From the sequence record OZ346186.1: a stretch of DNA of 50,013 nucleotides; one strand, written 5' to 3'. Position numbers and translations under genes: made by a program. Positions 1 through 34,429 of the stretch are shown piece after piece. This stretch comes from a phage. Numbering within the stretch: the stretch's first letter is position 1; each line of letters begins with the position of its first letter. The notes under the pieces were generated by a model, which saw only the letters and a list, made by a program, of their open reading frames with translations, was not told the DNA's origin and did no database searches.

Positions 1-1569
1 ATGCTGATTTGGGAAGACTTAACAGCGGCGCAAAAACGCGCCGTTAAGGAAATGAGCGAATATTCATTCGAAAAGATGATCCGCATTTGGTTTCAACTTC
101 TCCAGGGGCAAAGGTTCTTAGGAAACTGGCATTTCAGTTACCTATGTAGCGAAGTTGAAAAAATCATCAAAGGAGAGTCACAGAATGTAATTTTCAACAT
201 AACGCCAGGCAGTGGTAAAACAGAGATATTCTCGATCCACATGTCACCTTATGCGTCATTGAAAAGTAAGAAGGTGCGAAATCTTAATCTTTCGTTTAGT
301 GATGGCCTTGTCCAGCAGAATAGCAACCGAATTAAGGAGATTATTGGTTCTCCAGAATGGCAGGAGCTATGGCCTGGAAAGCTGGCAAAGGCGAGCGCAA
401 AGGATTTGATTGTAACCGATGGCGGCAAGGTTAAATTACAAGTTAACTCGCGTTCTATCGGTGGTCAGGTTACTGGTCTGCGTGGCGGATACATGGACGA
501 TGGATTTACTGGTATGCTGGTTCTTGATGATCCAGACAAACCGGATGACATGCTTTCTAAGGTAAAGCGAGAAGCCGGACACATGCGGCTAAAGAACACG
601 GTTCGATCGCGTCGAATGAAGGACACCACGCCAATTGTGATGGTTCAGCAACGCCTACACGTCAATGATTCAACATGGTTCATGACAAACGGCGGCATGG
701 GCGGTATCAAGTTTAAGGTGGTTAGTATTCCGGCGCTCGTTACTAAGGAATATCGCGAAACACTTCCTGATTGGTTAAAGCCTGAGTTTGATCGCGATGT
801 TTTGTCCAGTAAGCCAGTGATGATTGATGGAGTTGCTCATTATTCATTCTGGCCTGCTAAGGAAAGCGCGGAGGAATTGCTTGCGCTTCGAAATGCTGAT
901 CCGTACACGTTCGCTAGTCAGTATCAGCAACAGCCTGTTGCGCTTGGCGGTAACGTGTTTAAAACAGAGTGGTTTCAGTATTACGGCAGCAGCGAGAAAT
1001 GCACGCTACCAAAACCGGATCGCTTTGAATATACATTTATCACGGTTGATACCGCACAGAAAACAGGGGAGCTTAACGACTACTCCGTGATCTGTTATTG
1101 GGGGATGTATAAAGATCGCGTTTACTTCATTGATGGTGTTCGCGGAAAATGGGAAGCACCAGACCTTGAGACTAATTTTGTTGCGTTCGTTAATCAGTGC
1201 TGGAAGCGCAATAAAGAATGCGGAACGTTGCGAAGGATTCATGTTGAAGATAAATCGTCTGGCACTGGTTTGATTCAGAGTGCAGCGAAAAAAATAATGA
1301 TCAAGATCAATCCCGTTCAGCGCGATAAAGACAAGGTTACTCGTGCAATGGACGCAGCGCCAGTAATGCGCGCCGGACGCGTAGCACTTCCAGAATCCCA
1401 CCCTATGCTGGCTGAGATACTGGCTGAAGTTGCGGCGTTTACATTCGATGATTCGCATCCTCATGATGATATTGTTGATAACATCATTGATGCTGTTAAC
1501 ATTGAAATGAACATGGCAGATGATCCGGTAGGAAGAATGAAAAAATTGGCAGGTTTGCGGAACAAATAG
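1..1569 (+). CDS. terL: terminase large subunit
   Basis: 522-aa ORF at head of late operon, directly upstream of portal; window begins at its ATG, which overlaps the stop of the terS ORF at the window end if circular. Confidence 0.8.
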   Translation: MLIWEDLTAAQKRAVKEMSEYSFEKMIRIWFQLLQGQRFLGNWHFSYLCSEVEKIIKGESQNVIFNITPGSGKTEIFSIHMSPYASLKSKKVRNLNLSFSDGLVQQNSNRIKEIIGSPEWQELWPGKLAKASAKDLIVTDGGKVKLQVNSRSIGGQVTGLRGGYMDDGFTGMLVLDDPDKPDDMLSKVKREAGHMRLKNTVRSRRMKDTTPIVMVQQRLHVNDSTWFMTNGGMGGIKFKVVSIPALVTKEYRETLPDWLKPEFDRDVLSSKPVMIDGVAHYSFWPAKESAEELLALRNADPYTFASQYQQQPVALGGNVFKTEWFQYYGSSEKCTLPKPDRFEYTFITVDTAQKTGELNDYSVICYWGMYKDRVYFIDGVRGKWEAPDLETNFVAFVNQCWKRNKECGTLRRIHVEDKSSGTGLIQSAAKKIMIKINPVQRDKDKVTRAMDAAPVMRAGRVALPESHPMLAEILAEVAAFTFDDSHPHDDIVDNIIDAVNIEMNMADDPVGRMKKLAGLRNK

Positions 1570-31782: not shown

Positions 31783-31794
31783 GGAGAATTTTTG

Positions 31795-32910
31795 ATGAAG
31801 CAAATCAAAATCACAGATGAACAATTTATCAATGAGCGCAAGCAGGGAAAGACATATAAGCAGATCGCTAATGAGTATGGTATGAACGTTCGCAGCATTG
31901 AGCGACGCGCGGCACGATTAGCAAAGCAAGGTAAAGTTACAACCATCGGATCACCTGGTTTTGGTGTTACTGGAGAATCAAAGCTAATTGATAAAGATGG
32001 CAATGTGGTTATGACATGGATTAAGACAAGTAAGGACCGCGAACAGTTAGAAGCATTAATGCAGGCCGCTATGGATGCATTTAGCGAAGAAGTTCCTCGA
32101 CTTGATCCACAGCCAGAATCACAAAAGGATTATAGCGAGACGTTATCACTGTATCCGATCTTTGACATGCACTTGGGCGCAATGGCGCATAAGCATGAAT
32201 GCGGCGAGAATTGGGATACAGCAACAGCAGAGCGCGTAATGAATAATTTCATTGATTATTCCATCCAGTGCGCTCCTGATAGTGAAAAAGCTGTTTTGCT
32301 GATTGGTGGTGATATGCTTCACAGCGACGGACTGGAAGCGGTAACGCCTGCAAGCGGTCACGTATTAGATCAAGATAGTCGATACGCAAAACTTGTTTAT
32401 GTTGCCATCCGGTCAGTGCGTAGAGCAATCACAAAGCTGTTATCAAAACACAAAAACGTCGAGATTCAGATTATTGAAGGAAACCACGACCAAAGCGGCA
32501 TGATCTGGTTGCGCGCAGCAATGGCGGCAGCATATGAGAATGAGCCACGAGTGCATGTTGATGTGTCTCCGCGAGTAGTTCATCACACACAATATGGCAA
32601 AACGTTCCTGGCATACCATCACGGGCATACTATCCGCAAACCTGAAACGTTGCTTATGATGTGCGCGGCAGACTGGCGAGAAGACTTCGGTAATTCAAAA
32701 ATGATGTATGCTCACGTAGGGCACTGGCATCATCAGACAGTAACTGAAACAAGCCTGGGCATTGTTGAAGTGCATAGCACTATGGCGGCAAAAGATGCAT
32801 ATGCGGCGCGCGGTGGATGGCGTTCTCGTCGCCGTGCGGCTGTTATTGTTTATGATAAAGAATACGGAGAAGTAGGGCGATTTATGCATTATCCAGAAAT
32901 GGCTGGTTGA
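31795..32910 (+). CDS. HTH domain fused to Mre11/SbcD-type metallophosphoesterase
   Basis: N-terminal HTH-like KTYKQIANEYGMNVRSIERRAARL; phosphoesterase motifs DMH, GGDMLH, GNHD, GHWHH. Confidence 0.55.
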   Translation: MKQIKITDEQFINERKQGKTYKQIANEYGMNVRSIERRAARLAKQGKVTTIGSPGFGVTGESKLIDKDGNVVMTWIKTSKDREQLEALMQAAMDAFSEEVPRLDPQPESQKDYSETLSLYPIFDMHLGAMAHKHECGENWDTATAERVMNNFIDYSIQCAPDSEKAVLLIGGDMLHSDGLEAVTPASGHVLDQDSRYAKLVYVAIRSVRRAITKLLSKHKNVEIQIIEGNHDQSGMIWLRAAMAAAYENEPRVHVDVSPRVVHHTQYGKTFLAYHHGHTIRKPETLLMMCAADWREDFGNSKMMYAHVGHWHHQTVTETSLGIVEVHSTMAAKDAYAARGGWRSRRRAAVIVYDKEYGEVGRFMHYPEMAG

Positions 32911-32953
32911 ACTTTTAATCATTAAAATATAAATATAAATCATCAATTTAATT

Positions 32954-32983
32954 GGGCGTGGCATTTTGCTTCGCCCTTTTTTT
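32954..32983 (+). terminator. rho-independent terminator before lysis cassette
   Basis: gggcg..cgccc + T7. Confidence 0.55.
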
Positions 32984-33056
32984 ATTCCTTTTTGTGCGTT
33001 CAATGGTTAGGATACAATCAATTAATTGTTGACTTTTATATACAGGAGATCTAATC

Positions 33057-33272
33057 ATGAAAGATTTTTTAAACGCTGCAACTTCCGGCACTGGCGGCGC
33101 GTCAATCACTGGCGCGGTAACTGGTCAAACAACTATCGCAATAGCCAGCTTAGTTTTGATGGCTGCATTTGGTATGTGGGGCGCTTATCTTCGCTGGCGT
33201 GATAGTAAGGCGCTACGTGACGCGCTTGAATGCGGTGATATTAAGAAAGCTATTGAGATCAGAGGTAAATAA
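33057..33272 (+). CDS. holin (single-TMD, pinholin-like)
   Basis: 71 aa, one hydrophobic segment, charged C-terminus, immediately upstream of endolysin. Confidence 0.6.
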
Positions 33273-33760
33273 TGAGTATAAAACAAAGAGTGACCGCTGC
33301 GGCTTTTGGCGTTGCTCTTGCCCTTACTTCTCCGCTACTGGAGGAAATAGAAGGAGTAAAATATAAGCCGTACAAAGATATTGCTGGAATATGGACGGTT
33401 TGCGCCGGAATAACTGGACATGACGTAATACCAGGTAAAACGTACACACAGAGAGAGTGCGATGCGCTACTGGCAAAGCATATCAAGATCGCAAAGGATG
33501 AAGTTGATAAGCGTGTGAAGGTTGACATTCCTGATACAATGCGCGCGGCGATGTATTCATTCACATACAATGCTGGCACTGGCGCTTTTAGAAATTCAAC
33601 CATGCTTAAGCTGATTAATAACGGTCGTTATATGGAAGCGTGCGATCAGTTATGGCGATGGACAAAATACACCAATCCAAAAACAGGAAAGAAAGAAACG
33701 TCTAAAGGACTGCGCAACCGCCGCGCGGTGGAATTTAAATATTGCATTAAGGATCTGTAA
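33272..33760 (+). CDS. endolysin, T4-lysozyme-type muramidase with SAR-like N-terminus
   Basis: E-x8-D-x5-T catalytic spacing ([16 protein letters not shown]); Gly/Ala-rich weakly hydrophobic N-terminal segment. Confidence 0.75.
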
Positions 33761-33762
33761 TT

Positions 33763-34161
33763 ATGCGAAAGTTATCAATAATCGCGATCGCTGTTATTTT
33801 GTCTGGATGTTCAAGCGTTACGCCACTGACCGGATTGATAGGAAGCAAGCCTGAGATAACAGCACAGGCAGGAGCGGAGAACGTAAAGCAGACCGTTGGA
33901 GTTACCGCAAAGCAGGACACCAGCACAAAACAGGAAACTACAATAAAGGAATCTGCGGTTGATAAGGTGGACACTTCCAGCAAGAAGGATTTCACTACGT
34001 CAACCATTCAGGCAAACACCATCAAGGCTGATAAAATCCAGGTTGTGCAGGGTGAGCAAAGGAAGTGGTACGATCCTATAATCTATTGCGCTGCAATTTT
34101 CAGTGGTCTTTTGTCAATGCTTTACTTTTCCTACCGCAAAGGCAACAAAAAGGAGGCTTAA
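33763..34161 (+). CDS. unimolecular spanin (u-spanin)
   Basis: 132 aa; N-terminal lipoprotein signal (lipobox LSGC) and C-terminal TMD; directly after endolysin. Confidence 0.6.
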   Translation: MRKLSIIAIAVILSGCSSVTPLTGLIGSKPEITAQAGAENVKQTVGVTAKQDTSTKQETTIKESAVDKVDTSSKKDFTTSTIQANTIKADKIQVVQGEQRKWYDPIIYCAAIFSGLLSMLYFSYRKGNKKEA

Positions 34162-34177
34162 CGCCTCCTTTGTTTTA
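34147..34177. terminator. bidirectional terminator after spanin gene
   Basis: aggaggc ttaac gcctcct flanked by A- and T-tracts. Confidence 0.6.
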
Positions 34178-34396
34178 TAGTGAATCCATCAAATCTTGAA
34201 AGCTGTTTCCGCTATAATCATTCTCGACAAGAATGTAAGCACCTTTCTTCTTTATATCCCATAACATTTCATTGTATTCGTAACGATTTATTTCAAACGT
34301 GCTGCCATCTTCTCTTGTCGCAGTTCCTTTGTCGTTGAAAACATCAAAAGTTACATTGATGATTTTTGTCTCTTTCTTTGTTACTTTGATAGCCAT
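34175..34396 (-). CDS. hypothetical protein
   Basis: 73 aa from ATG 34396 (SD gagga); downstream of box promoter 34430-34474. Confidence 0.55.
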   Translation of the reverse strand: MAIKVTKKETKIINVTFDVFNDKGTATREDGSTFEINRYEYNEMLWDIKKKGAYILVENDYSGNSFQDLMDSL

Positions 34397-34429
34397 TTTT
34401 AAAATCCTCATATTCGTTTCGATGAAACA

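Follow-up and report, generated by a model that had tools for sequence, protein, structure and literature searches.

We found that three adjacent genes at positions 33057–34161 of a 50,013-nt phage sequence (OZ346186.1; the whole stretch is hereafter called the window) very likely serve a T1-like siphophage (Hanrivervirus) as its late lysis module, in which a holin, a signal-arrest-release (SAR) endolysin, and a unimolecular spanin (u-spanin) would act in three steps. We place the probability of this reading at roughly 80%. The first-pass annotation had proposed the same combination of holin, SAR-type GH24 endolysin, and u-spanin, and it was supported by homology to T1 gp13, gp12, and gp11, respectively, together with an alignment of the endolysin to the full length of R21. 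The cassette is already known: it is annotated in near-identical genomes and described as a family-level system. The finding is thus a correct but ordinary annotation of a T1-like phage's lysis module; it counts for little as a discovery.

Locus, source phage, and relatives

The three ORFs sit exactly where a three-gene lysis cassette had been claimed. They lie tightly packed on the plus strand and encode 71, 162, and 132 aa: the stop codon of the holin gene and the start codon of the endolysin gene overlap by 1 nt (TAATG), and a 2-nt gap lies between the endolysin and spanin genes. As read from the sequence, purine-rich candidate Shine–Dalgarno motifs precede all three starts, the clearest being the AGGAG of the holin gene (33044–33048, plus strand), a candidate ribosome-binding site 8 nt 5' of the ATG. 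"Compact" was an apt description of this arrangement, which is typical of Tempevirinae, though. Because all three ORFs had PHROGs or Pfam matches and pN/pS values of 0–0.22 (against BEK12B, pSf-1, Henu8, and KarlJaspers), they are real genes under purifying selection and not chance ORFs.

The cassette was 97–99% identical to those of the Escherichia phages vB_EcoP_06, KarlJaspers (Bas06), herni, and egaa, and 94–95% identical to that of Shigella phage pSf-1 (Hanrivervirus type). Among these Hanrivervirus cassettes (pSf-1, egaa, herni, KarlJaspers/Bas06, and vB_EcoP_06), nucleotide identity to ours was 93.7–98.8%, with point differences only. Both halves of the window matched the same phage group at 95–97%, and, judged by sequence, the window is from a Hanrivervirus-type T1-like phage (Drexlerviridae, Tempevirinae). 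It covers approximately 50 kb of the approximately 51.5 kb of related genomes, and therefore represents a nearly complete phage genome. A 522-aa ORF at window positions 1–1569, whose ATG begins at the first base of the window, lies under matches annotated as terminase large subunit; neither tRNA genes nor Rfam families were found in the window. GenBank records of near-identical phages label the three genes holin, endolysin, and u-spanin; the last of these is also named "RzlA" or "Rz-like spanin", and some records call it only "lipoprotein". In addition, approximately 20 unannotated "Campylobacter jejuni phage" records carry a T1-like coliphage cassette with 83–93% identity, such as GenBank MG065681, MG065673, and MG065667 ("Campylobacter phage A139/A119/A127"). 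These approximately 20 records also match the rest of the window, and their Campylobacter host label looks doubtful for Drexlerviridae.

The corresponding locus of T1 (NC_005833, 42878–43982) has the same gene order, with gp13 (holin), gp12 (endolysin), and gp11 (u-spanin) of 71, 162, and 133 aa, respectively, compared with 71, 162, and 132 aa here; amino acid identities were 58%, 65%, and 47% in the same order. The two loci also have in common the LSGC lipobox, a terminator located at the stop codon of the spanin gene, a DNA-repair exonuclease gene upstream, and convergent homologs of gp10 and the gp9 helicase downstream. In T1 alone, the exonuclease and holin genes are separated by an HNH endonuclease gene (gp15) and by a gene for a standalone SH3 protein (gp14); in their place, the window has 146 bp of non-coding sequence with a terminator hairpin, and no counterpart of gp14 (SH3) or gp15 (HNH) was detected anywhere in the window by tblastn. 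This absence agrees with published work that places the SH3 gene among the shell components, present mainly in other Drexlerviridae subfamilies (PMC13164509).

The T1-type module has been described in previous studies. T1 gp11 complements the lysis defect of lambda RzRz1 and is the prototype of unimolecular spanins (Kongari et al. 2018; PMC6139136). The same study included pSf-1 in the 28-member T1gp11 u-spanin family and described cassettes of this family as encoding a pinholin and a SAR endolysin. The T1 module is likewise described as pinholin, SAR endolysin, and u-spanin in a later work, in which the series exonuclease–holin–endolysin–spanin was a persistent core in 508 of 522 Drexlerviridae (PMC13164509).

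Features of the three lysis proteins

The endolysin gene (33272–33760, plus strand) encodes a GH24 (T4-lysozyme-type) enzyme. It matched PF00959 (Phage_lysozyme; Pfam, 6.7e-38), in line with the "T4-like lysozyme" of the first-pass annotation, and phrog_7 (PHROGs, 8e-56). Residues 3–159 aligned with full-length R21 (PDB 3hde; E = 7e-42); the alignment extends through the SAR region. A similarly strong match was obtained with Escherichia coli RrrD (4zpu; 6e-41). R21 of phage 21 is a SAR endolysin. Relative to the phage 21 and DLP12 enzymes R21/RrrD, the protein is homologous over its full length and shares both their E-D-T triad and their Cys pattern. The E-x8-D-x5-T spacing noted earlier was recovered in the translation as E27 (33350–33352), D36 (33377–33379), and T42 (33395–33397) on the plus strand, and it fell opposite the triad region of R21 in the alignment. 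A 6-residue deletion in the same alignment makes the linker from the anchor to the catalytic Glu correspondingly shorter than in R21.

At the N-terminus, the basic sequence MSIKQR (with K4 and R6) is followed by a 17-residue uncharged anchor, V7–L23 (33290–33340, plus strand; mean KD 1.84, no Cys), and then by E24–E25. The earlier description of this region as Gly/Ala-rich holds, as V7–L23 consists of 53% Gly/Ala/Ser/Thr. R21 has a longer and more hydrophobic anchor (24 vs. 17 uncharged residues here; 15-mer KD of 2.2 vs. 1.85). Among 120 homologs, 115 carry the catalytic motif, with an uncharged stretch that comes after one or two basic residues and stops just short of the catalytic Glu; this stretch is 17–19 residues long in 105 of those 115, and only five homologs have a Cys in the N-terminal region. 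Because the E-D-T triad is present and the anchor lacks Cys, assignment as a candidate R21-type (class II) SAR endolysin, not the disulfide-caged P1 Lyz type, is supported by the sequence. P1 Lyz (class I SAR) is also a GH24 enzyme with an N-terminal SAR anchor, but its structures (1xju/1xjt) gave only a distant match (E of approximately 1e-6). P1 Lyz is reportedly controlled by disulfide isomerization; with no Cys in the anchor and an E-D-T triad, such control cannot apply to the present endolysin. T1 gp12 has been predicted to be a SAR endolysin (PMC11447400), and lysis by a Drexlerviridae endolysin with the same motif was azide-sensitive (bioRxiv 10.64898/2026.09.09.750462).

The holin gene (33057–33272, plus strand) belongs to the T1 gp13 family, matching phrog_2877 along residues 1–71 (PHROGs, 1.4e-35) and T1 gp13 with an E-value of 5e-29. 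PF27028 (precomputed Pfam) was present in all 30 holin homologs, and the gene lies directly upstream of the endolysin gene, as in the T1 gp13 family. A match to Pfam DUF3262 was rejected, as it scored below threshold (21.3 bits vs. a cut-off of 27) and is probably compositional. The protein comprises a conserved, weakly hydrophobic, Gly/Ala/Ser/Thr-rich segment (residues 4–23; 33066–33125), a strong transmembrane domain (TMD) according to hydropathy (residues 24–45; 33126–33191), and a highly charged C-terminal tail (residues 46–71), which is probably cytoplasmic. Residues F4, T9, G13, G14, A20, and Q24 are invariant among close Hanrivervirus-type homologs and T1 gp13; in the wider family, only G14 is nearly invariant, and even the most distant members keep the composition of the first half.

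The number of holin TMDs was less clear. The first-pass annotation predicted one, and simple hydropathy indeed gave a single peak (residues 27–45). However, this count is not secure, because the same method also gave only one peak for EssD, the K-12 homolog of the phage 21 pinholin, and thus missed the first hydrophobic segment of that protein. The KD17 values of the first half of the holin (0.2–0.6) were close to those of the first hydrophobic segment of EssD (0.1–0.6), and the uncharged run of the holin extends over 42 residues (4–45). The AF2 model contained a helix at residues 15–59 (pLDDT 70.9 overall and about 50 for residues 1–20). The GenBank note for T1 gives its holin one TMD, whereas the holins of T1 and TLS were regarded as putative class II pinholins with two TMDs in the TLS paper (PMC11447400).

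EssD of DLP12 equals the holin in size (71 aa), and the Gly/Ala/Ser/Thr-rich N-terminal segments of the two are similarly weak. Nevertheless, the two are unrelated in sequence (no BLASTP alignment at E ≤ 100), and the holin lacks both a charged loop between its two hydrophobic halves and a dual start. An in-frame stop codon lies eight codons upstream with no ATG, GTG, or TTG between, indicating a single start without a dual-start motif. In a profile search of 1.84 billion proteins, the holin family consisted of eight close clusters at 50% identity, with no bridge from its alignment to any characterized holin among the 1.84 billion representatives, and our literature search found no experimental paper on the T1 gp13-type holin family, including its topology or hole size. 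Since there is no EssD similarity, the family is tiny, and no characterized member was found, small holes are an assumption for this holin, and the label "pinholin" is a reasonable inference from the cassette context. We tentatively consider, at somewhat less than even odds, that residues 4–23 are a releasable, SAR-like TMD1, which would make T1-type holins convergent, sequence-unrelated analogs of S21 68 with a dynamic topology but no antiholin. Alternatively, the holin may be a true single-TMD, N-out/C-in pinholin, like a natural "S21 68 delta-TMD1". Either topology, if true, would define the topology class of a holin family present in hundreds of Drexlerviridae.

The last gene of the cassette (33763–34161, plus strand) encodes a u-spanin of the T1 gp11 family. 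The u-spanin architecture proposed for this third gene was confirmed by full-length matches to phrog_1804 (PHROGs, 1.6e-49, residues 1–130) and T1 gp11 (E = 1e-36), and the protein is 100% identical to RzlA of egaa. Its N-terminus reads MRKLSIIAIAVI-LSGC-SS, in which the lipobox L13-S14-G15-C16 (33799–33810, plus strand) is the lipoprotein signal reported earlier. LSGC occurs in 111 of 120 homologs and Ser at the +2 position in 115 of 116; a non-Asp +2 residue such as this Ser is what outer-membrane sorting asks for, and the protein is predicted to be lipidated. The C-terminal TMD (approximately residues 105–124; nt 34075–34134, plus strand), also part of the earlier proposal, was recovered both as a hydropathy peak at residues 106–124 and as an AF2 helix at residues 103–129 (pLDDT 81–89, with 54.9 for the whole model). 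It is followed by a basic tail, RKGNKKEA; 115 of 116 homologs have a tail with a net positive charge.

Between the two anchors lies a periplasmic domain of 88 residues (17–104) that is rich in Thr, Lys, Ser, Val, and Gln. It contains no Cys, since the only Cys residues are C16 in the lipobox and C109 in the TMD, and the combination of lipobox, +2 Ser, TMD, and Cys-free periplasmic domain holds in 115–116 of 120 homologs. Absence of periplasmic Cys is a criterion for T1 gp11-type u-spanins (Kongari et al. 2018; PMC6139136). The beta-strand-dominated periplasmic domain of u-spanins in the same study is a secondary-structure prediction. We did not reproduce it, because the periplasmic domain had no secondary structure in the AF2 monomer, with pLDDT below 50 for residues 17–76. 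No other ORF with a lipobox is embedded on the plus strand of the cassette, and hence no separate o-spanin is hidden there; the spanin is a single polypeptide, whereas DLP12 has an embedded rzpD/rzoD pair. Matches of the spanin to NCBIfam spanin2_3 (23.4 bits vs. 80) and to TraV were sub-threshold. Residues 82–96 (window 34006–34050), the best-conserved C-terminal part of the periplasmic domain, display a 5-residue periodicity (IQANT-IKADK-IQVVQ), the T1 counterpart of which is IQANT-VNAES-ITVTK. Residues I82, A84, and A89 do not vary across 45 spanin homologs including T1; I87 and I92 are nearly invariant there.

Proposed lysis pathway and alternative explanations

In the pathway that we propose, the endolysin would be exported by the host Sec system via the weakly hydrophobic V7–L23, without cleavage, and would stay tethered to the inner membrane in an inactive state. 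The anchor ends only 3 residues before the catalytic Glu27, and the location of this residue at the membrane surface presumably keeps the tethered enzyme inactive. The holin would build up in the inner membrane until, at a programmed time, its lesions, most likely small "pinholes", collapse the proton-motive force. Upon depolarization, the SAR segment would leave the bilayer, and the enzyme would refold as R21 does and degrade the peptidoglycan. Loss of the wall would then leave the u-spanin, with lipidated Cys16 as its outer-membrane anchor and the C-terminal TMD as its inner-membrane anchor, free to act on the outer membrane by disruption or fusion.

The holin may be a canonical large-hole holin, not a pinholin, which we regard as rather unlikely. 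The SAR endolysin would still be released by depolarization, as in phage P1 (LydA/Lyz), which pairs a SAR endolysin with a non-pinholin holin. The protein belongs to an isolated family with no sequence relation to the S21-type EssD, our literature search found no hole-size experiment for the T1-type holin family, and neither the number of TMDs nor protein size is diagnostic of hole size. For example, T of phage T4 has one TMD and makes large holes. However, a SAR endolysin needs no large hole, and the protein is very small, with two TMDs at most. The literature also labels T1-family holins pinholins consistently, albeit by inference (PMC6139136, PMC11447400, PMC13164509).

In another alternative, the N-terminus of the endolysin would be an ordinary cleavable Sec signal peptide, leaving a soluble periplasmic enzyme that is restrained in some other way. 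It does look like a short signal peptide, with the basic n-region MSIKQR, 17 hydrophobic residues, and a possible signal-peptidase site, A15-L16-A17, before L18. This small-x-small motif is, however, not conserved across the 120 endolysin homologs (the corresponding position reads ALTLT in T1 and LMLAS, MMLTI, or VGMAV in others), which argues against cleavage as the mechanism of the family. Furthermore, the N-terminus corresponds in the alignment to the SAR domain of R21, which is not cleaved, and a cut after A17 would leave only nine residues before the catalytic Glu, whereas the released SAR segment of R21 reportedly forms part of the active fold. We regard cleavage as improbable. For the third gene, a weak match to phrog_1119 (Cor superinfection exclusion; 1.8e-5, residues 1–63 only), along with its plain "lipoprotein" label in GenBank, could point to a Cor-like or other accessory outer-membrane lipoprotein. 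We rejected this match as signal-peptide similarity; the phrog_1804 match (1.6e-49) is far stronger and full length, as is that to T1 gp11, and the C-terminal TMD is conserved, which Cor does not need. T1 also carries a separate cor gene elsewhere, and the spanin function of T1 gp11 was demonstrated by complementation (PMC6139136), so that a role other than that of a u-spanin is very hard to credit.

Flanking elements and mosaicism

Upstream of the cassette, an ORF at 31792–32910 (372 aa) has 57% identity to the DNA-repair exonuclease encoded by T1 gene 16. It is followed by a terminator-like hairpin with a U7 run (32954–32983, plus strand), which RNA folding placed at −14.6 kcal/mol (z = −3.77), with none of 200 shuffled sequences being as stable. 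This hairpin is conserved in pSf-1, Henu8, and KarlJaspers, a terminator is also annotated in T1 behind the corresponding gene 16, and the hairpin separates the lysis cassette from the replication and repair genes. At the other end, a terminator scan found an intrinsic-terminator hairpin (34149–34171, both strands; nine pairs, five of them GC) with the stop codon of the spanin gene in its loop. Its folding energies were −14.7 kcal/mol on the plus strand (z = −3.3) and −16.1 kcal/mol on the minus strand (z = −4.4), and T-runs on both strands indicate a bidirectional terminator. In T1, a terminator is annotated at the equivalent position, by the spanin stop codon. Both the cassette and the minus-strand genes that converge on it end at this hairpin.

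We found no convincing sigma-70 promoter in the stretch from the upstream terminator to the holin gene, and the number of promoter-like sites was not above that in shuffled sequences. A sigma-70-like site at 33029–33058 was rejected, as transcription from it would start inside the holin ORF. By eye, TTGTGC-15-TACAAT at 32992–33018 is a weak promoter candidate that is conserved in close relatives. The 146-bp spacer (32911–33056) also contains conserved TTGAC(T/A) and ATACAA(T/A) motifs, which are kept even in the diverged BEK12B. On the minus strand, a 78-aa ORF (window 34175–34411) converges on the spanin terminator. It had no NCBIfam match and no T1 counterpart at that position; in relatives (KarlJaspers bas06_0050 and pSf-1 gp14) it is annotated as a hypothetical protein.

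The cassette also bears traces of mosaicism. In many near-identical relatives, the C-terminal TMD and tail of the spanin (window 34091–34161, spanin codons about 98–132) are swapped for an unrelated hydrophobic module, as in Henu8 (96.6%), PGN590, slyngel, and most phages with 78% identity; the replacement in Henu8, for example, is NNGRWYDPIIICVVVLIVLIWLYWREKKKEA. In these cases, the nucleotide alignment breaks off at query position 1034. As the C-terminal module is replaced in otherwise near-identical relatives, the membrane anchor of the spanin seems to be exchanged as a unit, and the recombination junction appears to lie near the conserved WYDP. Synonymous divergence was also uneven along the cassette: against BEK12B, pS was approximately 0.57 for the holin and endolysin genes and 0.22 for spanin codons 1–105, with no amino acid change in the latter, whereas the pattern was reversed against pSf-1 (0.10 for the holin gene and 0.37 for the spanin gene). 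These opposite patterns suggest that recombination breakpoints lie between the endolysin gene and the spanin gene.
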